A stretch of DNA of 24,000 nucleotides, taken from an uncultured Desulfuromusa sp. Lineage in GTDB: Bacteria; Desulfobacterota; Desulfuromonadia; Desulfuromonadales; Geopsychrobacteraceae. Each line of letters opens with the position of its first letter. The stretch's first letter is position 1. Of the stretch, positions 3,001 to 19,281 are shown piece by piece. The position numbers were made by a program, and so were the translations under genes. The stretch covers positions 1,167,746 to 1,191,745 of the forward strand of contig NZ_CAXXLH010000001.1 in the NCBI RefSeq assembly GCF_963675815.2. The letters are read 5' to 3'. The notes beneath the pieces were generated by a model, which saw only the letters and a list, made by a program, of their open reading frames with translations, ran no database searches and was not told where the DNA came from.

Positions 3001-4379
3001 ACGGGGATAACAACACCAAACCGAACCGCTGAAGCAGCCTTTCCAGTTGCTGATGACAATTCAGATGAACTGGTAAAACTCCCTGCAGCTATTGAAATTG
3101 TGTCAGAGTTCAAAAGGGTCGCAACGTAATTGTCAACGCTGGTTTCTTTTAACTCATCTGGTCTGACATCGGTAAAGTTTGAAATTGTTTTTGAATATCC
3201 TGTCTGAGTAAATGAACATATGGGGTAGCTGCTTGATGGAACGCTAAACCCATCCCCAAGCCGACCCGTCGTTTTACTGACATAGATATAATTGGTTCTC
3301 GTTACCGGCGCGTAGACAGGTTGAGATCCACTATCACCACCGTCATATGACACGACCTCCAAACCAGGACCGTTAGGAACATCATAGAGATGATCGCTTG
3401 TTACAATTGTTGGGATTGCCGATGTCCATGTATTTAAACCTGTTGGGCTGTATTCAACCTCAAAGCTAACAGTCCTCTCCTGCTTCTCACCATGGGAGTC
3501 AAATTGAACAAGTCCTGACGCAAACGTTATTTCAACATTCAGTTCATCAATACCAGCGGCGCTTGTTTGTTCAACCCAACCGGTAGATTCATTCAAAGTG
3601 ACCCCGACCGTGGTTTCCACGACTGATCCAGGGTAAAGAGACACAGCCCCGTCGTCCGCGTACCCATGCTTCACTTCGATCTCAACGTCATCGTAGTCAA
3701 ACAGGTCAGTTTCGCCTATCTTGTGTTTGGAGATATCAAGAGGTCCATAACCAACCACAAACAGCAACCTGAGATACTGATCCTGCCCGACAAGTTCTGT
3801 GTATGGTGGAGCGCCGTAATATGGCGTAACAAGGTGCTCACCCAAGATAGCTGGGATGGGCTGATAGAGTGCTGCGGTATTTCTTGCCCCTGCAATTGAT
3901 AGTGTTGGTTTGTCAGAGCCTACAGATGATAGGACATTTTGTTTTGGAGGTGGAACAATGGCGTTAATTGCCAAAGATCCTGCAATTCCGATAACAGCAG
4001 AACCTACAGCACCCCATCCTGAACCGGTTCCGGCAAAACCAAGCCCACGTCCTATCGCACCCCCAAGGGGGCCACCGTATACAGTTGCAACAATCATAAC
4101 AACAACAGCGAGGATCGTTGCTAACGGGTTTTTATCATCACCGCCCTGGGGAATAATGCGGATGGTAACAGACTGCCCTGGGGCTGGAATAAGGGTGTCC
4201 CAATAACGCTCATCAATATAACGATCATCAACATAGATATGCGCGTATCTGGCCAGAATAGGATCGGGTTGGACATCCAGCAGGATCTCGGCCAGGGTTT
4301 TACCGGCCACGCTGGTGACAATGGCTCCACTGCGGAAGGGATTAGGACAAGCAATAACGGGGACAAGATCAGATTGCAT
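1..4379 (-). CDS. Tail-tip host-specificity protein, lambda J-like, fused to a gpI-like N-terminal module (3' end lies beyond the window start)
   Basis: It is absent from the ORF track because it has no stop inside the window. I translated this minus frame by hand from ATG 4379 to position 1 and found no stop (>1459 codons). The N-terminus reads MQSDLVPVIACPNPFRSGAIVTSVAGKTLAEIL. It is followed by a Gly-rich hydrophobic segment, GGPLGGAIGRGLGFAGTGSGWGAVGSAVIGIAGSLAINAI (gpI-like). J-family motifs then follow: PTLSIAGARNTAALYQPIPAILGEH, DQYLRLLFVVGYGPLDI and ANGQYDIRVRRVTAD. An FN3-like segment is also present (HKYEVRYQSIG...YSVQCRALSKDGFASAWS). The gene follows the M/L/K-like genes. Confidence 0.85.
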   Translation of the reverse strand, partial: MQSDLVPVIACPNPFRSGAIVTSVAGKTLAEILLDVQPDPILARYAHIYVDDRYIDERYWDTLIPAPGQSVTIRIIPQGGDDKNPLATILAVVVMIVATVYGGPLGGAIGRGLGFAGTGSGWGAVGSAVIGIAGSLAINAIVPPPKQNVLSSVGSDKPTLSIAGARNTAALYQPIPAILGEHLVTPYYGAPPYTELVGQDQYLRLLFVVGYGPLDISKHKIGETDLFDYDDVEIEVKHGYADDGAVSLYPGSVVETTVGVTLNESTGWVEQTSAAGIDELNVEITFASGLVQFDSHGEKQERTVSFEVEYSPTGLNTWTSAIPTIVTSDHLYDVPNGPGLEVVSYDGGDSGSQPVYAPVTRTNYIYVSKTTGRLGDGFSVPSSSYPICSFTQTGYSKTISNFTDVRPDELKETSVDNYVATLLNSDTISIAAGSFTSSSELSSATGKAASAVRFGVVIPVANGQYDIRVRRVTADPLETQTIYDTATWSTLRSIENSDPIAVSGVAKVALRIKATDQLQNIIDQYNCVAKSICPAWTGTEWVEQPTSQPAALYRHVFQGSPMKSPLADSRLDLTELQEWAEETDLYGYFYNAVQTARTSPFEMVRNIAAIGRASYANKDGLHSVVRDTAVIEERGVKQWLTPRNSWDVDGSKSFDEIHGVYVNYIDASAGYRQEQIFVPNDGYTEATATRIDKIETLGITEHSQAYKQGRYYLAVAQLRPEMHSRMVDVEHLVCTRGDLIRVTDDVAMHGLYSGRVKEVFYHATTGDAIAVTLDETVTMETGKTYALRFRLSSGGDIYRAVTLDVGETNTLVFETSIAIADAPEIEDLAMFGESDQETSLKIIHHIEKSEDLTARIYYVDAAPEVWAADLSTIPDYDPGISVPVDSAITIPDIPSITSISTESATLTADGSMSYSILVSLSPIGGRVPAHKYEVRYQSIGSNDGWSIVVGNPAIITGLTPSLAYSVQCRALSKDGFASAWSDEESFSVGVQSNQSTDWSDITDDGGTKPVDNADATATALQSLIELTSGGIRSTLENGDYAEIGSNGVRFSIGGVLVDSVSRMEDGIASSGVYQDFEYDFTTDDIRVFLFLDDNTLYASALQSDDQKLVLKAEMITREGFMPTGELQFSGATAIELTKNTALAVGDTYYDSTTDRSVDDVIKMICRLSGAGNVGVYYSSWTGSAWGSETLLGTKTSDPGYINPAAFSGSGSDDWRSATLAIKPADGSDITIVDSTSDYDGDGSASYTLPSSAEDDVIFVFLTKDRQDAHNVPAGWTTVLNSTSQNMCAVCVYQRVGATSPTTYSFVDDGGLPDQNSTFIAVTLRGVHADTLDAISVFAAGSSGMPNSPEITAQTEGALIIAAGFLDDDNVTNTAAPTGFANLINQPYTPGSTNNSTTMVAFKWLTEMYQEFVTPTLTSGRHRFRFNAVATATLRDIELQTSGGTAAIPGDMKYLAFQGG

Positions 4380-4773
4380 AACGCCATGCCTCCCGAATGC
4401 GTGGCCGCAAGTGCGGACGGGTAAAGTCTTCGACGACTGCCATTTTGCCATGCTCGCTGTGGATAATACGGCGGTGATCGATGACGATACCTAAGTGACA
4501 ATCAAAACCGGCCTGGCGGATGACCAGCACATCAAATGCTTGTAATTCCGTGAGACCAACGGGGATAAAACCAATTAACGTTGGCTGTGTGTGAATCATA
4601 CTGTTCATTGTTGCGTGATCGCGGGTGCTCTCATATCCCTGCAATGCAGGCAGCTCGATGCCGCGTTCATGTCGATAAATCAACCGTAACAGCCCATAAC
4701 AGTCAACACCTGACCAGCTGCGGCCTTTGCTGACAAAATCGATCCCGACGTATTTTTCCCACCAATTCATCAT
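4369..4773 (-). CDS. NlpC/P60-family tail-tip protein (lambda K C-terminal-like)
   Basis: 134 aa. A Cys/His peptidase signature is present: SGVDCYGLLRLIY ... FDCHLGIVIDHRRIIHSEHG. The start overlaps the upstream gene stop as ATGA. Its position between the L-like and J-like genes fits. Confidence 0.85.
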   Translation of the reverse strand: MMNWWEKYVGIDFVSKGRSWSGVDCYGLLRLIYRHERGIELPALQGYESTRDHATMNSMIHTQPTLIGFIPVGLTELQAFDVLVIRQAGFDCHLGIVIDHRRIIHSEHGKMAVVEDFTRPHLRPRIREAWRYAI

Positions 4774-7654: not shown

Positions 7655-8006
7655 CAATCACCTCGATCATATTCCGATCGCATTCTTTGCAGTCTTCTTC
7701 TGTCCATCCATCCAGCTGCTTACAGGCTTTACAATATTCATCTTCTGGTGTTGCTTTTTCTCCAGCGCCCAGAAGCTGAATCACCGCTTCACGGAACAGG
7801 GTTTCCCGGCTGCGGTACTTCAGCCAGGGCAGCGCTTCTGCCGGGGTTAATCCCCAGAGGATTTGGTCTCGCTTGGTCCAGTCTCCTCCACAGAGCTGGA
7901 TGACGCATTGCTCGATCCAGTCGCCTGGCTCACTGTTTGCGTTATCTTCTGAGTCACCCCGACCACCAGGTCCAAAATCAAATGGATCGGGTTGCAGTCG
8001 AAAAAA
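7647..8006 (-). CDS. -1 frame extension of the tail assembly chaperone (lambda GT analogue; fusion product 8296..8000 joined to 8000..7647, about 216 aa)
   Basis: After T TTT TTC the -1 frame stays open for 117 codons (RLQPDPFDFGPGG...LWGLTPAEALPWLKYRSRETLFREAV...EYCKACKQLDGWTEEDCKECDRNMIEVIDE). It stops at TGA 7647-7649, overlapping the tape-measure start. The 189-nt gap 7658-7846 has no independent start codon or SD. Confidence 0.7.
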   Translation of the reverse strand, partial: FFRLQPDPFDFGPGGRGDSEDNANSEPGDWIEQCVIQLCGGDWTKRDQILWGLTPAEALPWLKYRSRETLFREAVIQLLGAGEKATPEDEYCKACKQLDGWTEEDCKECDRNMIEVIDE

Positions 8007-8296
8007 TCGGTCACCACTTCGGCCACCTTCTCCGGACTCATGGCAAAAGCCAGCTGTTTAGCGAGTTCGGGAAGATCCTTCTCCCATGGCTTGATATCTT
8101 TTTCCGTCAGGACCACAGCCAAGATCTGATCCAGCCGATCAGCAAAAGCTGCCGTCAGGGCGTATGGGGTCAACTGCGCGGGGATCTCGAGTCCATCAAT
8201 AATCCGGTTGAGTTGCTGCCATTGACCAAATGACAACTCCTCCTGGACGTAGGTTTTGCCGTCAATTTCATAGGTTTTAATTGTTGTTTGAGACAT
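7847..8296 (-). CDS. Tail assembly chaperone (lambda G analogue, 0-frame product)
   Basis: 149 aa, acidic, located between the tail tube and tape-measure genes. It contains an in-frame slippery heptamer (see 8000-8006). Confidence 0.75.
   Translation of the reverse strand: MSQTTIKTYEIDGKTYVQEELSFGQWQQLNRIIDGLEIPAQLTPYALTAAFADRLDQILAVVLTEKDIKPWEKDLPELAKQLAFAMSPEKVAEVVTDFFDCNPIHLILDLVVGVTQKITQTVSQATGSSNASSSSVEETGPSETKSSGD
8000..8006 (-). other. Programmed -1 ribosomal frameshift slippery heptamer T TTT TTC
   Basis: The plus strand reads gaaaaaa at 8000-8006. On the minus strand this is T_TTT_TTC, aligned as X_XXY_YYZ with chaperone codons F98-F99 (codon 98 starts at 8005). Confidence 0.7.
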
Positions 8297-8321
8297 GTTT
8301 AAAGTTCCTTTAAAATCATCT

Positions 8322-8357
8322 AAAAGTCTGGGACAGCCCCCGTGCGGGGACAGTCCC
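8322..8357 (-). terminator. GC-rich stem-loop plus short T-tract after the tail tube gene (attenuator or partial terminator)
   Basis: GGGACTGTCCCC-GCAC-GGGGGCTGTCCC spans 8330-8357. The stem is about 11 bp with one mismatch and one G.U pair. It is followed on the minus strand by AGACTTTTA. The T-tract is short and offset, so termination would be partial at most. Confidence 0.45.
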
Positions 8358-8361
8358 GGTT

Positions 8362-9324
8362 TTAGATGGTGGGCTGTGCGTTCTTCAGGGTAATCTGCAG
8401 CACGCTGGCTTCGGCACTATCATCGTAATAGGCGACAAACGGTAGTTCGACCAGGACTCCTTTGGGACCGCTGATCGCCGGGGAATTTGGTGCGTAGGTC
8501 AACTCAGAAAGCAGGAACTCAATCGATTCATTTCCGGCGCTGCCCAGGCCATCTCCTTTGCTGTAAACGATTTTCAGGCTTGATTCGGTATCATTAACCG
8601 CCTTGTTGTAGAGAGTCAGATTTTCAAATCTGGCCTTGACAGTTCCGGTGACTGAGACCAACCCTGACGGAATATCATCACGTTCACCTTCGCCACCGAC
8701 ACTGTATTGATCTGTATCCGGATCATTGTTAATCGTCAGATTGTCGATGCCCAGGACATTAGCGATCGCCACGCCCCCCTCCTCAATCGTGGCGATGGAA
8801 AAACCGTCAAAGCTATGCTTGCCGAGATCTGTTGGGGTGGCATCGAAGGATGTTCCGGAGGGTGTTTCTTTTGCGCCGACAAAATTGAAAGTCACAGGTT
8901 GAGCGCCTGCCGGGGTCACCGAGAAGGACATGGATCCAACCTTGTTGCCGTTGTATTTGAAATACTGGCCAACATCGGTGAAGCCTTTTTCAACCAACAG
9001 ACTGGGCAGCTCATCTCCCACCTTGAAGGTATGGGTGTATGGCCCGGTTCCGGTGGTTGTTACAGATCCCATGGTTGCTTTAAATAACAAGCCGATATAC
9101 GCCTGCAGTTCAACCGCAAGGGGTCCGGAGACATCGGTATTAAGGCGCAGCGGTTTGGTTGGGTTGCGATCCCCACTGATGGATGGCGATGCTTCCTGAC
9201 CACGGTTTTGTTTTAATCCGCAACTGATAAAGGTGATCTTCTGCGCGTCCGGAGTTGGATCCGTTTTGAAGGCAGTCTCTTCCTGGATAAGGATTTGTCC
9301 TTTTGCTCCTTTGGCTTGTGCCAT
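8362..9324 (-). CDS. Major tail tube protein (siphovirus type)
   Basis: 320 aa. A strong SD (AAGGAGG) lies 8 nt upstream of the ATG. The gene sits between the head-tail connector genes and the frameshifting chaperone. The composition is beta-rich with a high Thr/Gly/Ser content. The family assignment rests on position. Confidence 0.7.
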   Translation of the reverse strand: MAQAKGAKGQILIQEETAFKTDPTPDAQKITFISCGLKQNRGQEASPSISGDRNPTKPLRLNTDVSGPLAVELQAYIGLLFKATMGSVTTTGTGPYTHTFKVGDELPSLLVEKGFTDVGQYFKYNGNKVGSMSFSVTPAGAQPVTFNFVGAKETPSGTSFDATPTDLGKHSFDGFSIATIEEGGVAIANVLGIDNLTINNDPDTDQYSVGGEGERDDIPSGLVSVTGTVKARFENLTLYNKAVNDTESSLKIVYSKGDGLGSAGNESIEFLLSELTYAPNSPAISGPKGVLVELPFVAYYDDSAEASVLQITLKNAQPTI

Positions 9325-13539: not shown

Positions 13540-13636
13540 GCTTAACCCTTTCTCAAAACCATGTTTAAACCCTTTTAAAATCGCCTGTATTTGACAAACT
13601 CTTTTTTTAGCTACCTTTGCCCGTTTGATGTTGAGA

Positions 13637-14161
13637 TCATTCCTTCAGGGCGGTTTCCAGGTGGTTGCGTAATTCTGCTAAAATCTCCTGCCGGTCTCCT
13701 GGACCGATCCCCAGAAACGGACGAGCTGGAATGGTTACTTTTTTCCCTCTCCCTGCCTTGCCTCCAAACTGATGGAGTGCTGCGTAGACCTTGCCGCTGC
13801 CAATGGCCACCGATGTGCGGGACGCGCTGTAGTGGATCGAGTTGCGCAGCTCGTGGCTGTCGGTCAGTATCTTGCGACCCGCCAGATACTTGGAAAATGC
13901 TGCTGTCAACGATCCGGACTTTGTGTGGGTGGCCTTTTTCTTGCCGATCGAATAGCCCAGGTGATAGCTGAGCACCTTGAGCGGCTTCCAGGGAGTCCCG
14001 TCCGGTTCATGCTCGCCCCGGAAATTCTCCTCGGTGCTGCGCAACAGGTGTTCGCCGATGGCTTTCATCGCCGGAGTCAGATCGCCGGTGGCTTTTAAGG
14101 CGCGGTTCAGCGCCTGTTGCACCTGATCATCTTCGATTCTGACGCTGAAACTTTCGGCCAC
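13637..14161 (-). CDS. Virion morphogenesis protein, Mu gpG family
   Basis: 174 aa with a GTG start at 14161 and GGAG 10 nt upstream. The motifs LTPAMKAIGEHLLRSTEENF, DGTPWKPL, LHQFGG and IPARPFLGI match gpG / phage virion morphogenesis family proteins. Confidence 0.85.
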   Translation of the reverse strand: MAESFSVRIEDDQVQQALNRALKATGDLTPAMKAIGEHLLRSTEENFRGEHEPDGTPWKPLKVLSYHLGYSIGKKKATHTKSGSLTAAFSKYLAGRKILTDSHELRNSIHYSASRTSVAIGSGKVYAALHQFGGKAGRGKKVTIPARPFLGIGPGDRQEILAELRNHLETALKE

Positions 14162-14189
14162 TTGATTAAATCTCCTGTTTTGCTATAAT
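14162..14189 (+). promoter_or_regulatory. Near-consensus sigma70 promoter with extended -10, on the plus strand
   Basis: TTGATT (14162-14167), a 16-nt spacer, then TGcTATAAT (14181-14189). It overlaps the SD/GTG region of gene G on the opposite strand. Confidence 0.55.
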
Positions 14190-14194
14190 GACAG

Positions 14195-14314
14195 TGCAGG
14201 CGCTGGTTGAGCCGAAGCCTCTTTAACCAGTTAGCCGAGCGACGCAGGCTGCACGGAGCCTGTAGTCTCGTTTATTCCCTCCCAAAGACCAGACGGCCTT
14301 TGCGGAGGTTTTTT
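14195..14314 (+). ncRNA. Candidate ~120-nt plus-strand small/antisense RNA (no family recognised)
   Basis: The unit is bounded by the promoter above and the terminator at 14278-14314. Internal stem-loops lie at 14203-14230 and 14245-14262, and an A/U-rich linker precedes the terminator. It has no ATG and no SD. It is antisense to the MuF 3' end and the MuF-G spacer. The 5' end is inferred from the -10 position only. Confidence 0.45.
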
Positions 14315-15465
14315 AATGCTGTTTTGCTGCCTCGGAAAAATGTCATCCCAACCCAGTAACCCCCTTGAATATCGGCCACCAAGCCAATAGACTGGGTCTT
14401 GTCCAGCTTGATCAACTTGACATAGCGTCTCCGCAAAGCCACCCGACCAGAGACTTCACTACGTGCAAAGTTGATCCAAATTTCAGCCGGGTTTTCTATC
14501 AGCTCCGGTATCAGCGGGAAAAACTCCTCGCGTTTATCAAAGCGCCCACCCTCAACCATGTGATCAACCAGAGCCTGGGTGATGCGCACTTTTTCACCGG
14601 CGGGATCCGTCAGGTTGACAGCATCTCCCCCGACGGAGTCACGTAAAGCTTGCCGTAGGGCTGCTTCGTCACCAACGGGGACGGGTCTGATCCGTTCCGC
14701 TTGTGCGGCATCGATCGGCACAGCACCCCGACCATATTTCTCCGGCCCCCAGGGAATCAGATCTGTCCACGGGCCTTGATCTTCCATCAACCGTAATTGG
14801 TGGCTCCGTCCCCAGGCGGCCTGGCCAACGTTGTAATCCCACCCTTTGTCAATTCCCACAGGTGCGCCGGTTTTGGAATCGATCTCAATAGCTGGCGCTT
14901 TGTCCGGCCCGGTCTTGCCCATGCGTTCCAGATCCCGCTCACTCACTGAGAACACTTTGCACTTGCAGCCCCAGCCGTTCGGGGTGTAGTGGGTCTGCCA
15001 CCAGGGATCGTCAGCGGGGAGAATCGTTCCATCCCACGCCAGATGAGGCAAGCGCGGATGCAGACTGTCGCCGTGGCGGTATTCCAGGTACGGTCTCAAT
15101 TTCAACAGCTCGGGATCGGTCAGTTGCTTCCAGCGACCGGCCATGTAAGCGGTGCGGATGTTGGTGCTGTAAATGACGTTGCTGCGCCAATTGCGGCCAC
15201 CGTTGTAGCTCCAGCCGTGTTTAGCGACGATAATGTCGAAGTCTTTGCGGAACGTTTCCAGCGTGGTGCCTTCGCTGATCGCTTTATCAACCGCAGATCG
15301 AAAGTCGGTCAGAAGATCGTCGCGCATGGCCCCGGCAACCATGAACCCCCGTGCGTGCTGGTCTTTCCAGAGGTCGGCCCATGTCGATGTGGGGACATTA
15401 ACCTTGCCCCGAAAAAACTCGACCGCCTCGGTAAAAGGCTGTTTAAATGCCAGTTCAGCCGCCAT
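14272..15465 (-). CDS. Head morphogenesis protein, MuF / gp30 (SPP1 gp7) family, with a C-terminal extension domain
   Basis: 397 aa. MuF core motifs: NIRTAYMAGRWKQL, YLEYRHGDSLHPRLPHLAWDGTILPADDPWWQTHYTPNGWGCKCKV. Residues from about 216 to 397 form an additional domain (see findings). Confidence 0.9.
   Translation of the reverse strand: MAAELAFKQPFTEAVEFFRGKVNVPTSTWADLWKDQHARGFMVAGAMRDDLLTDFRSAVDKAISEGTTLETFRKDFDIIVAKHGWSYNGGRNWRSNVIYSTNIRTAYMAGRWKQLTDPELLKLRPYLEYRHGDSLHPRLPHLAWDGTILPADDPWWQTHYTPNGWGCKCKVFSVSERDLERMGKTGPDKAPAIEIDSKTGAPVGIDKGWDYNVGQAAWGRSHQLRLMEDQGPWTDLIPWGPEKYGRGAVPIDAAQAERIRPVPVGDEAALRQALRDSVGGDAVNLTDPAGEKVRITQALVDHMVEGGRFDKREEFFPLIPELIENPAEIWINFARSEVSGRVALRRRYVKLIKLDKTQSIGLVADIQGGYWVGMTFFRGSKTALKNLRKGRLVFGRE
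14278..14314 (+). terminator. Rho-independent terminator on the plus strand (embedded antisense in the MuF 3' coding end)
   Basis: CCTCC-CAAAG-a-CC (AGAC loop) GG-c-CTTTG-c-GGAGG gives 12 bp with one bulge and one mismatch (14278-14308). TTTTTT follows at 14309-14314. On the minus strand the same hairpin has no following T-tract. Confidence 0.6.
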
Positions 15466-17056
15466 TCACACCCTCCTGTCTGGCTTCATCGCGTCCGGCC
15501 AGATCGCCGAGCAGTAAGGCTTTGGCGATCAGATCTCCAAGCTGTGCCGGGTCCAGATCTGCATTGAGATCGATCAGCTGATCGCGGAAATCCTCCAGGC
15601 TAGCGGACTCGCCGAGCAACGTGCGGATCTGCGCAATCATGTCATCGACTGTCGGCTGTGCTCCCTGGCTGAGCTTTGCGGCAATAATATCGGCAGTGTC
15701 GGGCTGCGGCTGCTGTTCGGCGTTAAGCGCTCGCTGCTGATTTGTCGCCGCAGCCGGAACGGCGGAATCTGCAATTTCAGATTTCTGATTTGATATCTTC
15801 CCCGCAGGGACAGTCAGCAGATCTTCCGGCTTGGCGTCTTCGGCGGGTTCAGCAATGCCGATTTTGTCGCGTACCACGGACTGCTCAACCCGCAAACCCA
15901 ACGGCACCAGAGTTCCCAAAGCTTCCACCAGGGCGGCAATATCTTCGGCATCGGCCTGGGCGATGGATACAGTGGGATATTCTTCTTGCGGGCCCCAATT
16001 GAGATCGATGTAGACTTTGACCAAATCACGATTGATCGTGTCACTAAGCTGTTCGGCATCGTCATCGCGGATATCGTCACGCACTTCGCCTTGCAGCTCT
16101 TCGTTGCCGAGCTTTCCGGGAGTGCCGGAGCTGGATGCGGTTTGTCCGAGAATCCCCTTGCTGACCTGATCGTCCAGGTAGTTGGCCAGGGTGACAAAAA
16201 AGTCGGCACTGCTGCCTTTGTTTCCGGCTTCGACAAGTTCGATCTGCATACTCTCAGGGAAGACAGCGGCGGCATCGATCCCCAGGTTGGCGACGGCCAT
16301 CTTCAGGATAGCGATATCGTCTTTACTGGCGTTGCTGCCGTATTTCCCCATACGCAGGGGCATGCCAAAGACTTCGGCAAAGGCCAGCCAGTCTTTGACG
16401 GTGTAGCCTTTGCACATGTAGGCCCAGGCAGCGAGTCGGGCCAGACCACCACGGATCGGGATGCCGCTTTTGATTTTTGGCACATGGGTGATGAACTTGA
16501 ATGGAGCGAGAGCTAATCCATCGAAGCTGTCGGCTTCATCACGTAGCCGGATTTCAGTTCTGGCGATCCGCTCGAACTGGAAAAAGTGCGGATCGCGCCA
16601 GCGATATTCTTTGGGTTTCCACTGGCTTCCGGAACGATCCCACATGATTTCTGCGACGGAGTAACCTTTACCAAGTCCATCGAGCAGGTCTTTAAGCAGC
16701 ATGCGGAAACCTGGCTTGCGGACAAGTTTGCTGACTTCATCAGCCAGCTTTTTGTCATGGTCGCTGTCGGTCGCAGATTCGACGTTGATGGGCAGACGGC
16801 TGACGGCCAGCTTGCGCTTGGAGAGTTCGCTGCCATAATGGAGATCGCGCTCTTCCATCTCTTCAGCCAGGGTCAAAAAGGCATCGTGATCGCCCTGGGC
16901 GGCATCCATAAGCAGACCCGCCAGACCGACGGGCGTGAGACCGCTGGCCACGCTGCTGTCCCATAAGGTGCGGATTCCGGCCAGAGTTGGTGCGGCGATT
17001 TCTTTGGTCAGTTCGCCGGTTTTGATCGGACGTCCATATTGATCAACAAGTGCCAT
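15455..17056 (-). CDS. Portal protein, Mu gp29 family (DUF935-like)
   Basis: 533 aa, immediately downstream of the large terminase. The motifs FQFERIARTEIRLRDE, GGLARLAAWAYMCKGYTVKDWLAFAEVFGMPLRMGKY and an acidic C-terminus are consistent with Mu-type portals. Confidence 0.9.
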   Translation of the reverse strand: MALVDQYGRPIKTGELTKEIAAPTLAGIRTLWDSSVASGLTPVGLAGLLMDAAQGDHDAFLTLAEEMEERDLHYGSELSKRKLAVSRLPINVESATDSDHDKKLADEVSKLVRKPGFRMLLKDLLDGLGKGYSVAEIMWDRSGSQWKPKEYRWRDPHFFQFERIARTEIRLRDEADSFDGLALAPFKFITHVPKIKSGIPIRGGLARLAAWAYMCKGYTVKDWLAFAEVFGMPLRMGKYGSNASKDDIAILKMAVANLGIDAAAVFPESMQIELVEAGNKGSSADFFVTLANYLDDQVSKGILGQTASSSGTPGKLGNEELQGEVRDDIRDDDAEQLSDTINRDLVKVYIDLNWGPQEEYPTVSIAQADAEDIAALVEALGTLVPLGLRVEQSVVRDKIGIAEPAEDAKPEDLLTVPAGKISNQKSEIADSAVPAAATNQQRALNAEQQPQPDTADIIAAKLSQGAQPTVDDMIAQIRTLLGESASLEDFRDQLIDLNADLDPAQLGDLIAKALLLGDLAGRDEARQEGVNGG

Positions 17057-18715
17057 TTACCAGAGTCCCTTTCCTGCGCCGAGTCCGGCGGTGACCCGCA
17101 CCGGGCGAGTTGTGTTGTCATTGTTTTTGGTGCGACGGCCGAGACCTTCGTAGGCGTATTCGGCCGGATCCTGTTTACTGGCAAACCACATCAGAGCAAG
17201 GGCGATGGCGCTGTCGCCGTGGCGCTTGAGCTTGGAGTCCTTGGTATCGACCTCTTTGTATTTCGGCAACTTGATAATGCCGTCAATCCGCTCCAGGGCG
17301 CGGACGTCGTTGAGAACGTCTTTGTCGCTGGGGACATCGAGTAAGCGATCGCGCCAAGCGTCTTCGAAGCTGCCCATGTTGTCTCGGTACCAAGCATCGT
17401 TGAGAGAAACCTGGTGAATAACGTTGTGTCCATAGCGATCGGCGGTGTACTCGGCGATGGTCTGGCCGTTACCGGTGGCGTCCATGGCTCCACAGCGGAA
17501 GCGCGGCAGGCAGTCGATCATGCGCCAGAGAATCTGTTCTTGCTGCCGGGTCGGGACGTTGTGCATCTCGATCAGAAACGGCACCTTACGGATTAGGGCC
17601 TGCTGGATGAAGCCAGGCGCGGCGACGGCAAAGTCGACATGCCGAGCGTAGTCACTGCCGAAGACATGCTCATAGTCCGGATCGAGGGTATCGAGCAGCC
17701 AGTTGAGATTCTGACGAATCCAGTCTTCGGCCCAGTGACGGCGCACGTGATCGGGCTGCAGGACGAACTCTTTTTCGAGCGCCAGGCGCAGGATCTGCCG
17801 GGGCTCATGCATGCACTGCTCAACATAGATACTGGGAATGGCGACGCCGCTGCCTTCACGCGGGATAGCGTCGAGTTCTTCCTTCATAGCAGCTTTGTTT
17901 GTGCCGTAGCTGCTCCTGATCTTGTCGTACCAGGCTTGCTTGGCTTCTGGAGACGGGGTCCAGCCACGCACAAGGCAAACCCGCTCATAAAGGCCATTAT
18001 TGACGGCGTCATCAAAGGTGATACGCATGATGTTGAACGGCTGCAGTCCGGCCCGGCTGTCTTTGATCAGCTGGTTAAAGGGGCTTCTATCGGTATTGTG
18101 GGTGCTGATAATGCGGATCTTGCCGCCCCAGATCAGCAGCGCCAAGGCCGAATCGATAACCGCCTGGACGTTCTTGTGAAACGCAGCCTCATCGATATTG
18201 ACGATACCCTGCAGTCCGCGAATGTTGGCCGGGTTGCTCGACAATGCAACCACCTGAAAGCTGGAGGCAAAGCGGATGCGATAGGCGGTGATATCGCGGG
18301 TGGTCACTTCGTTACCGACGGCGTCATAAACCTGGTCTTTAAACATAAAGACCTCTATGCCGTTCCAGTTCTCTGCCATGGCGCAAGCCATAACCCTGGC
18401 GAAGTGGGCGCAGTAGCCAACAAATTCAAGACCCTTATCCTTGGTGTCTCCGACATAGTAAATGTCATCGCCACCGGCTTCCTTGGAGCTGGAGACAGTG
18501 ATGGTGTCATCCAGGGCGGTGGCGTAGGTGATGCCTGTTCGGCGACCCTTCTCGGCAGCACACAGGTCATGCTCATGGATCAACTTGCACCAGTCGACCT
18601 GGTGCTGCATCAACACGCCCTCACTGAGCGGATTGATATCAGCCGGAAGAGAGCGAACACTGTCTGGCAACTCTTCGTCGCTGATTATGCGGATGACATC
18701 TCCGGGTTGACTCAT
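17057..18715 (-). CDS. Terminase large subunit, Mu gp28 family
   Basis: 552 aa. The N-terminal ATPase region is LMQHQVDWCKLIHEHDLCAAEKGRRTGITYATALDD. The Walker-B-like motif is IVNIDEAAF. A C-terminal nuclease-like region is present. It has an ATGA overlap with the gp27-like gene. Confidence 0.9.
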   Translation of the reverse strand: MSQPGDVIRIISDEELPDSVRSLPADINPLSEGVLMQHQVDWCKLIHEHDLCAAEKGRRTGITYATALDDTITVSSSKEAGGDDIYYVGDTKDKGLEFVGYCAHFARVMACAMAENWNGIEVFMFKDQVYDAVGNEVTTRDITAYRIRFASSFQVVALSSNPANIRGLQGIVNIDEAAFHKNVQAVIDSALALLIWGGKIRIISTHNTDRSPFNQLIKDSRAGLQPFNIMRITFDDAVNNGLYERVCLVRGWTPSPEAKQAWYDKIRSSYGTNKAAMKEELDAIPREGSGVAIPSIYVEQCMHEPRQILRLALEKEFVLQPDHVRRHWAEDWIRQNLNWLLDTLDPDYEHVFGSDYARHVDFAVAAPGFIQQALIRKVPFLIEMHNVPTRQQEQILWRMIDCLPRFRCGAMDATGNGQTIAEYTADRYGHNVIHQVSLNDAWYRDNMGSFEDAWRDRLLDVPSDKDVLNDVRALERIDGIIKLPKYKEVDTKDSKLKRHGDSAIALALMWFASKQDPAEYAYEGLGRRTKNNDNTTRPVRVTAGLGAGKGLW

Positions 18716-19281
18716 TTGATCCCCAATACCTGCTCACGCCAGAATTGTGCGTCTTCTTTGGTTAAGCCACGCTGGATGGCTGTATCTGCTACTGTTTCGG
18801 CGGCATCCTGCAACGCCTGCTGCCGGATCTCCCGTTCTCGCTCAACATTCAGATTCGCGGCTTTTTCCAACCGCATGGTAGTGAGAGCCAAGTCTTTGAG
18901 CATCCCGGCCACGGCGGGCATATTCTCAACATCTTCCAGATCCAGATCGGAGGCTTTTAACGACAGATCAAAGCTAAGGCTACGCAGGATCTCGTTCACC
19001 AGGTTGCCTATTTTCCCTTGTGGAGCTGCCCCGAGCTTGTTGATCCACATGTCTGCCACTTCACGGGACTGCTGCAGTTTTGCTCCAACTTCGCGCATTT
19101 TCATGTCGTAACGATTGACGGCTGATTTACTCAGTCGTTCCGGGTGGTCCATCTCTTCCAGGATCTGGTTGATCCGGAGCACGGCATCCTTTTGCGTCAC
19201 CTTGCGGTCACGCAGTAACTCATTGAGCTGGTCGCGCACTTCGTCCGGAAGCAGATCAATGCTGGATTGCTGATGACCCAT
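18712..19281 (-). CDS. Mu gp27-like protein (DUF3486-like), putative small terminase / pac-recognition subunit
   Basis: 189 aa. The opening is IDLLPDEVRDQLNELLRDRKVTQKDAVLRINQIL, followed by a coiled-coil C-terminus. It lies directly upstream of the large terminase. GAGGTGG lies 8 nt upstream of the ATG. Confidence 0.75.
   Translation of the reverse strand: MGHQQSSIDLLPDEVRDQLNELLRDRKVTQKDAVLRINQILEEMDHPERLSKSAVNRYDMKMREVGAKLQQSREVADMWINKLGAAPQGKIGNLVNEILRSLSFDLSLKASDLDLEDVENMPAVAGMLKDLALTTMRLEKAANLNVEREREIRQQALQDAAETVADTAIQRGLTKEDAQFWREQVLGIK

Follow-up and report, generated by a model that had tools for sequence, protein, structure and literature searches.

A probable structured RNA gene convergent with the late operon between MuF and G of a Mu-like prophage, and its possible coupling to the nuclease-fold tail of MuF

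The stretch of DNA considered here (the window, 24,000 nucleotides at its full length) comes from an uncultured Desulfuromusa and holds the late, or morphogenesis, region of a Mu-like prophage, with the late genes on the minus strand: a Gp27-like small terminase, the portal protein (Portal_Mu), MuF, G (Phage_tail_S), the protease I, the major head protein gpT, the tail tube and the tape measure protein. Between MuF and G lies a spacer of 110 bp, and it is this spacer that concerns us, since a preliminary description of the sequence had proposed that it carries an independent transcription unit on the plus strand for a small structured RNA. Comparison with related phages supports that proposal, and we consider it very probable that a plus-strand RNA gene does exist in the spacer. 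On the sequence evidence, the element would be a gene with a promoter of its own, convergent with the late operon, which in all copies found would run from the ribosome-binding region of the next gene to the stop codon of a MuF with a PBECR2 tail, and which would belong to an RNA family that has not been catalogued. The features on which the argument turns are as follows.

14272–15465, minus strand: MuF, a gp30-like minor head or DNA pilot protein of 397 aa, with an N-terminal Phage_Mu_F part and a C-terminal PBECR2 domain
14284–14646, minus strand: the PBECR2 domain of MuF, residues 274–394 (Pfam PF18810, E 3.8e-24)
13637–14161, minus strand: G, the Phage_tail_S virion morphogenesis protein; its Shine–Dalgarno (SD) sequence, CTCCT in plus-strand letters, is at 14172–14176, within the promoter spacer
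14162–14167, plus strand: −35 hexamer TTGATT, which abuts or overlaps the GTG start of G (14159–14161, minus strand)
14181–14189, plus strand: extended −10 element TGcTATAAT (hexamer 14184–14189), separated from the −35 by a 16-nt spacer
14195–14197, plus strand: predicted transcription start, deduced from where the −10 lies; pairing in the conserved structure begins here
14196–14240, plus strand: 5′ domain of the predicted RNA, from fold, covariance-model match and covariation of pairs
14241–14267, plus strand: 3′ domain of the predicted RNA, an extended P1 hairpin, from the same three sources
14268–14277, plus strand: U-rich tail UCGUUUAUUC after P1, a possible proximal 3′ end, which holds the reverse complement of the MuF stop codon (14272–14274)
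14278–14314, plus strand: distal terminator-like hairpin and T6, within the last 13 MuF codons, present in the window and in a minority of relatives

It had been stated at the outset that every credible gene of the window is on the minus strand, and this is borne out: the large minus-strand open reading frames (ORFs) are Mu-type morphogenesis genes, while the plus-strand ORFs, including one at 14207–14359, gave zero Pfam matches. The plus-strand unit likewise has neither ATG nor SD, as first described, and there is no conserved ORF in the MuF–G spacer, where the pattern of conservation is the compensatory change typical of RNA. That a small ORF or an immunity peptide occupies the spacer is accordingly rejected, given the missing ATG and SD, a 50-aa plus-strand ORF without Pfam match and the compensatory conservation. 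The tail of MuF, PBECR2, is a domain of the Barnase/EndoU/ColE5-D/RelE (BECR) fold, in which a predicted catalytic histidine, His302, lies within VDHMVE and is nearly invariant among 54 relatives. Read-through of the MuF stop codon was set aside, since the open frame has a chance-level length, with end points that differ (by eye) among relatives.

The promoter elements, TTGATT at 14162–14167, the 16-nt spacer and TGcTATAAT at 14181–14189, are all where they had been placed, and the promoter does overlap both the start codon and the SD of G. It scores 10/12 in addition to the TG of the extended −10, and in 16 kb only one other site reaches 10/12. The window taken by itself shows no excess of promoter-like sites (12 against a shuffled expectation of 10.9), and the same holds for its terminator-like sites. 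What carries the case is conservation, which the preliminary description had itself set as the point on which its claim could fail. A promoter of at least 8/12 with A2 and T6 is found on the antisense strand in 77% of 47 copies of the element, compared with 4% on the sense strand and 3.9% of 1,880 random windows taken from the same loci; at a threshold of at least 9/12 the figures are 55%, 0% and 0.7%, respectively. TTGnnn stands at the homologous −35 in 36 of the 47 distinct copies, mostly as TTGACn and most commonly as TTGACT, and TAnnnT is kept behind a spacer of 16–18 nt (17 nt in 25 of the 36), with the −10 ending 6–10 nt before the first paired base in most copies. The promoter is also present in two copies (L003 and L146) where the following gene is not G, so that it travels with the RNA and not with a particular downstream gene.

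These relatives were not to be had from near-identity searches, since 13600–15500 matched nothing in the phage and E. coli collections, and the choice of comparison turned out to matter a great deal. Neighbours chosen by their G protein (L001, L002, L081 and L082) first made the spacer look unconserved, a comparison that misleads, as the MuF of those phages either carries another tail or is tail-less: in L001 and L002, where G is 85% and 67% identical, MuF is short, with no tail and no spacer, and in L081 and L082 both tail and spacer are different. In L002, a metagenome-assembled genome, the MuF core and G form a single ORF of 384 aa (3374–4528, plus strand), which is either a fusion or an assembly frameshift. 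Loci chosen by MuF (63–75% identity), by contrast with those chosen by G, all keep a spacer of 105–110 bp that can be aligned and that shows compensatory changes. A covariance model, built first from seven spacers and then rebuilt from 33, finds 51 copies in metagenome, viral and genome contigs, of which 47–50 are distinct depending on the flank needed, and the RNA is present in relatives whose MuF is as little as 30% and up to 75% identical. The family is seen in Mu-like phages and prophages of Desulfuromonadia (including Desulfuromonadales), Bacteriovoracaceae, Nitrospirota and Thermus, with one cultured phage among the copies, the Thermus phage Riverbug of T. thermophilus HB8 (PQ109080), in which the element lies at about 15.9 kb and TTGCAC, 17 nt and TGcTAGAAT are followed by the structure and then by GUUUUAUU. 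All 47 hits start between −6 and +52 nt from the end of the alignment to a PBECR2-type MuF, most of them within ±10 nt.

Against Rfam 15, the window has no match at the gathering score and nothing relevant at E ≤ 10 in 13900–14600, eight relatives with better-conserved copies also gave no match, and a literature search turned up no RNA described at the MuF–G position. A likeness of ...CCCCGAUAACCGG to the repeat handles of type I-E CRISPR was not supported by Rfam and was set aside. Two further observations from the search belong here. At L230 (1081–1167, plus strand) there is a weak model match (E ~0.001) upstream of MuF, in the portal region and without an antisense promoter, which is probably a false positive, and in L248, a metagenomic Mu-like locus, the RNA element is followed, about 1.1 kb downstream, by a transfer RNA gene (3929–4002, minus strand; Rfam, 68 bits).

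The RNA itself is predicted to be compact and to have two domains, with a conserved core of about 72 nt (14196–14267) that reaches up to the MuF stop codon. In the 5′ domain, outer pairs join 14196–14197 to 14239–14240 and 14199–14201 to 14234–14236, and enclose a helix, P2 (14204–14208 with 14225–14229), and a hairpin, P3 (14209–14221, with its loop at about 14211–14217); in the 3′ domain, P1 pairs 14241–14243 with 14265–14267 and 14245–14250 with 14257–14262 around the loop GCACGG (14251–14256). Read along the gene strand, the layout is the extended P1 hairpin (3+6 bp) and then a second arm (2+3+5+3 bp; P2ext, P2 and P3). The window is matched by the model at 14176–14273 on the minus strand with 77–86 bits (E 3e-15 to 1e-23), and the plus-strand RNA 14196–14316 folds at −49 kcal/mol (z = −3.6), with none of 200 shuffles folding as well. 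The two stem-loops proposed at the outset, at about 14203–14230 and 14245–14262, are both present, and both covary across relatives; the linker before the terminator, UAGUCUCGUUUAUUC, is present too.

Covariation was assessed in an alignment of 50 distinct copies, in which 87.5% of the cells at paired positions can pair, and changes on both sides are seen in 26 of the 28 base pairs (251 cells). The covariation score of 0.461 compares with 0.139±0.008 for shuffled alignments (0/500 as high) and falls to at most 0.073 when the partners are slid by 1–3 columns. In addition, the loops of P1 and P3 are complementary over about 6 nt, as in a kissing interaction, and they co-vary in more than a dozen ways, among them CCGTGC/GCACGG, CCGTAC/GTACGG, ACGCAC/GTGCGT, CCGCCC/GGGCGG, CCATGC/GCATGG, GTGCGC/GCGCAC and CCGATC/GATCGG. 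Since the loop–loop pairs are absent from the covariance model, the alignment cannot have favoured this covariation. The earlier label of a textbook Hfq-type small RNA is not supported by the look of the family, which has a compact two-domain fold with a covarying loop–loop interaction, and whose conserved parts are the helices and the loop–loop partners and not the exposed seed of the Hfq-dependent type. Three loci carry tandem pairs of the element (L199, 2709–2798 and 2809–2906; L227, 2705–2800 and 2864–2957; L268, 2705–2800 and 2931–3017), and the two copies of each pair differ in their loop–loop sequences. Promoters score 9/12 for both copies in L268 and 8/12 and 7/12 in L227, and in L199 the proximal copy has none (4/12), so that this pair, with a promoter on the distal copy only, would be co-transcribed.

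Which strand is the functional one can be read from the pairs that are not Watson–Crick. In the orientation of the genes, A·C or C·A outnumbers G·U by 87 to 25 among such cells, by 77 to 23 after thinning to 45 representatives below 80% identity, and by 15 to 3 in the kissing loop alone. An A·C surplus in the gene orientation is a surplus of G·U on the opposite strand, which places the RNA on the plus strand of the window. The asymmetry of the wobble pairs and the position of the promoter are two independent tests, and both point to an RNA encoded on the plus strand.

The 3′ end is where the first account needs correction. It had described a strong terminator, a 12-bp GC-rich stem at 14278–14308 followed by T6 at 14309–14314; the location stands, an uninterrupted 12-bp stem does not (there are 10+2 pairs with a bulge), and neither does the idea of a conserved feature, since the T-run consists of the AAA-AAC codons for Lys-Asn in the MuF tail and T5 or more occurs in only about 12 of 45 relatives. 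A preference for AAA over AAG at that lysine (6:1, p = 0.046) is weak at n = 7. Because the distal terminator is not conserved, the length of about 120 nt and the 43-nt overlap with MuF that had been claimed are not upheld and must be treated as uncertain, the conserved core being about 72 nt. A terminator scan also flags 14244–14263 with the tail 14268–14277, and a canonical terminator in the antisense direction directly follows P1 in L200, L255, L263 and the Thermus phage Riverbug. An end just after P1 would therefore give a predicted transcript of 72–80 nt, and an end at T6 one of about 120 nt. The core lies between the SD of G (14172–14176) and the stop codon of MuF, and the RNA would overlap MuF only if transcription runs to 14314.

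What might such an RNA do? One clue is the company that it keeps. Among eighty metagenome MuF loci chosen without regard to the RNA, it stands behind 33 of the 53 with a PBECR2-type tail and behind none of the 26 without that tail, and several of the 20 PBECR2 ‘negatives’ show, by eye, diverged copies with matching loop pairs and an antisense promoter. In twelve loci whose MuF has no tail, MuF either overlaps the next gene or stands no more than 25 nt from it. Within the PBECR2 class, the RNA accompanies 41 of 68 tails that bear the predicted catalytic histidine and none of the seven that lack it, so that the histidine is present in all RNA-bearing loci (one-sided hypergeometric estimate ~0.003, not corrected for relatedness); the histidine-less tails without RNA include those of a Ralstonia prophage (L277) and a gut-metagenome contig (L280), and the Pseudomonas phage JBD25 has neither histidine nor RNA.

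Other tails appear to come with other RNAs. MuF genes with a different tail often have a spacer of 120–140 bp with a different structured antisense RNA, which has a long closing stem and a U-run, and these RNAs share the promoter layout TTGnnn-17-TAnnnT on the antisense strand. A second type (L081, 3845–3968 on the minus strand; L082, L217, L284, L285/L286 and L287/L288), unrelated to the first, follows MuF or stand-alone proteins with a PBECR1/3-like tail, and has an invariant GCCTTCGG...CCGT...TGATGAG, covarying stems, the long closing stem and the U-run. Two further tail families have two further RNAs, one in L233/L235 (spacer 2655–2774; promoter TTGACT-17-GATATT) and one in L225/L234 (spacers 1804–1936 and 1816–1955), and in both the antisense strand folds as a closed multi-branch RNA with a stem and a U-run at its end. 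At least four RNA types are therefore seen in the MuF slot, and MuF shows the pattern expected of a polymorphic cassette, a variable effector tail with a downstream element that changes alongside. Eight loci with these other RNA types, type 2 included, had no match in Rfam, and a scan of viral contigs with the L081 tail returned L081 itself and nothing else. The UGAUGAG of type 2 has a likeness to the core of the hammerhead, which Rfam did not support and which we do not retain.

Iyer et al. (PMC5512222) describe PBECR domains, which are injected together with the DNA of the phage, as predicted ribonucleases (RNases) or as RNA-binding, and the version in Mu gp30 as inactive and probably RNA-binding. 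The proposal that the RNA is an antitoxin or regulator of the C-terminal domain of MuF, made at first as a speculation, has gained circumstantial support from the linkage to the tail, the correlation with the histidine and the tail-specific RNA types. Because of presence and absence, the tail-specific types and the histidine, we lean, if only just, towards a functional coupling of the RNA with the nuclease tail, the two making up a single functional cassette. The type of promoter suggests that the RNA would be made constitutively in the prophage, at a time when the late operon, which depends on an activator, is silent, and it may then restrain the nuclease tail by either of two routes. In the first, it would pair with late messenger RNA (mRNA) crossing the MuF–G junction, leading to cleavage of the duplex, with the head-on promoter hindering read-through; in the second, it would bind the PBECR2 domain as an antidote or pseudo-substrate. 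Pairing fits the geometry yet leaves the conserved tertiary fold unexplained, and the RNA misses the ribosome-binding site of G, whereas binding to protein would account for the fold, the conserved unpaired bases and the tail specificity; we regard the two modes as roughly evenly balanced. The fullest version of this idea, an ‘immunity RNA’ that acts as a folded decoy or inhibitor of the PBECR2 RNase tail, both the prophage's own and that of MuF injected by a superinfecting relative, is one that we put forward tentatively, as a possibility that may well prove wrong.

Several observations weigh against the RNA gene and its coupling to the tail. The RNA is not obligatory, as at least L197 (~2682) and L257 (~2712) have histidine-bearing PBECR2 tails with no spacer and no RNA, and JBD25, Ralstonia prophages and Lsp-JY19 gave no model match. 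Adjacency and phylogeny confound the link between tail and RNA, since cassettes that recombine as units could yield much of the association. The window copy keeps all of its helices, but its P3 loop is degenerate and offers 3+2 loop–loop base pairs instead of six, and a conserved intramolecular loop–loop fold would hide the very loops through which antisense RNAs usually recognise their targets. The family tail after P1 is only weakly U-rich (T at 3.4/9 versus 2.3/9), and the distal terminator of the window is not shared by its relatives. Finally, the RNA spares the ribosome-binding site of G and its core barely overlaps the MuF ORF, which together weaken the case for a simple antisense block of translation.

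Of the alternatives, the one to be taken most seriously is that the element serves the late operon as a generic device of cis-antisense control or transcription interference and has nothing in particular to do with PBECR2: a constitutive head-on promoter, and the duplex formed with late mRNA, would shield the genes beyond MuF from leaky transcription in the lysogen, much as lambda OOP or P22 sar might, and the association with the tail would reflect shared ancestry and adjacency only. In almost every copy the convergent promoter does overlap the start codon and SD of the gene that follows, some PBECR2 tails do lack the RNA, and the window has a second plus-strand promoter-like site that abuts a start codon and is followed by a hairpin and a T-run (8288–8365). 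Such a device gives, however, no reason for a tertiary fold, for covarying loop–loop partners or for unpaired nucleotides that are conserved where MuF is only 30–40% identical; the ribosome-binding site lies outside the transcript core; in otherwise close relatives (G 85% identical), MuF genes without a tail also lack the spacer; and different tails have different RNAs. We find this reading unlikely, although by no means negligible.

A second alternative is that the functional molecule is the sense strand, with the late mRNA carrying a cis-acting processing site, a stabiliser or a translational coupler and the promoter being incidental. Most of the pairs are Watson–Crick, so both strands can fold; on the sense strand, P3 of the window shows a C(UUCG)G tetraloop, and the start of the element always falls at the MuF stop codon. 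The 87 to 25 asymmetry favours the other strand, however, the antisense promoter is conserved with constant spacing whereas neither a promoter signal nor a U-tract is seen on the sense strand, and such terminators as some members have point only in the antisense direction; given the wobble asymmetry and the strand of the promoter, we reject a sense-strand element as improbable. A shade less probable still is an RNA that assembles with itself or accompanies the virion, its loops pairing between molecules as in phi29 pRNA, so that it works with the portal and MuF or is packaged with the MuF tail. Loop–loop covariation can be assigned in silico to neither intramolecular nor intermolecular pairing, the tandem copies carry different loop pairs, the gene sits beside those for portal and MuF, and the MuF C-terminal domain of Mu is predicted to bind RNA; against this, a constitutive convergent promoter suits expression in the prophage better than morphogenesis, nothing else indicates packaging, and many Mu-like phages do without the RNA. 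That the spacer is a functionless, promoter-like and hairpin-rich accident might be argued from the window alone, in which such motifs do not exceed shuffled expectation, and is effectively refuted by the retention of structure, promoter and position in 47 distinct copies from several phyla under strong controls.

Several known systems bear comparison. Lambda OOP, whose target is the 3′ end of cII, on the antisense side, and P22 sar are likewise short phage RNAs with a sigma-70 promoter of their own that run against a phage mRNA to which they are complementary, and here too expression in the lysogen is predicted; the MuF RNA shares with them this convergent promoter, and has no kinship to them in sequence or in Rfam. 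Unlike them, it has a two-domain fold with covarying loops, sits in a late morphogenesis operon with its core over an intergenic spacer and not over the 3′ end of a coding region, and co-occurs with one type of tail. In the type I toxin–antitoxin pairs txpA/RatA and bsrG/SR4, from prophage-like elements of B. subtilis, a convergent antitoxin RNA overlaps the 3′ end of the gene for a small hydrophobic peptide toxin. There too an RNA gene with a constitutive promoter converges on the 3′ end of its target on a prophage, yet here the partner is not a small hydrophobic peptide, being a 397-aa virion protein with an RNase-fold tail, and the overlap with its ORF is minimal or uncertain.

In type III systems (ToxI/ToxN, CptIN and TenpIN), too, a pseudoknotted or tertiary-folded RNA adjoins a (predicted) endoribonuclease, and a few of our loci have tandem copies. 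There, however, the antitoxin repeats precede the toxin gene on its own strand and are released by processing of a transcript that holds both, whereas the MuF RNA lies downstream, on the opposite strand and behind its own promoter, and is usually single-copy (two copies are confined to L199, L227 and L268); the BECR fold also differs from that of ToxN, and binding of RNA by the tail is putative. The MuF polymorphic toxins have immunity proteins encoded downstream (Jamet et al. 2017, PMC5576092; Iyer et al. 2017, PMC5512222), and in them a variable C-terminal effector is likewise followed directly by a small cognate element that changes with the tail. The differences are that our downstream element would be a non-coding RNA gene on the opposite strand instead of an immunity ORF, and that the tail is a putative toxin. 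Lastly, phi29 pRNA is also an RNA with two covarying, complementary loops from a tailed phage, near head and portal functions, with no similarity to the MuF RNA in sequence or secondary structure, and with another genomic position and promoter logic.

Some other features of the neighbourhood deserve brief mention. At the position of the large terminase, the window has an ORF of 552 aa (17057–18715, minus strand) with no Pfam match at E<1e-3, and opposite to it one of 490 aa (17639–19111, plus strand), also without Pfam match and probably a shadow ORF. The G–I spacer (13540–13636) is 97 bp long and AT-rich, and its position corresponds to that of the late promoter P_I and the strong gyrase site in phage Mu. 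In Mu, the strong gyrase site lies between G and I; as an explanation of the MuF–G element, a strong gyrase site of this kind was considered and rejected, covariation of stems not being expected of a DNA-binding site. At 8288–8365 on the plus strand, in the gap after the tail-tube gene, the second promoter-like site mentioned above (TTGAGA-17-TAAAAT, 10/12) has its −35 against the start codon (8294–8296) of an ORF at 7847–8296 on the minus strand, and is followed by a GC-rich hairpin (8331–8358) and GTTTTAG; this could be another antisense mini-unit or merely a bidirectional terminator.

Why should any of this matter to those who work on phages? First, the MuF RNA defines a widespread family, absent from Rfam, whose tertiary fold is supported by covariation, whose promoter is conserved and whose genomic partner is strict. 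It also furnishes the first concrete lead on an interaction partner for the PBECR/MuF C-terminal RNase-fold tails of phage DNA-pilot proteins, and suggests that RNA rather than protein can supply immunity or regulation for phage-delivered effectors. The presence of a member in Riverbug, a cultured phage of T. thermophilus HB8, makes promoter, transcript, loop–loop pairing and effect on the tail directly testable. If the immunity reading is true, the cassettes of Mu-like phages would be polymorphic, every family of injected nuclease tails being matched by a convergent structured RNA of its own, and the operon of the head genes would be home to a new class of RNA–protein antidotes, which would follow the logic of type III toxin–antitoxin systems in a different layout.

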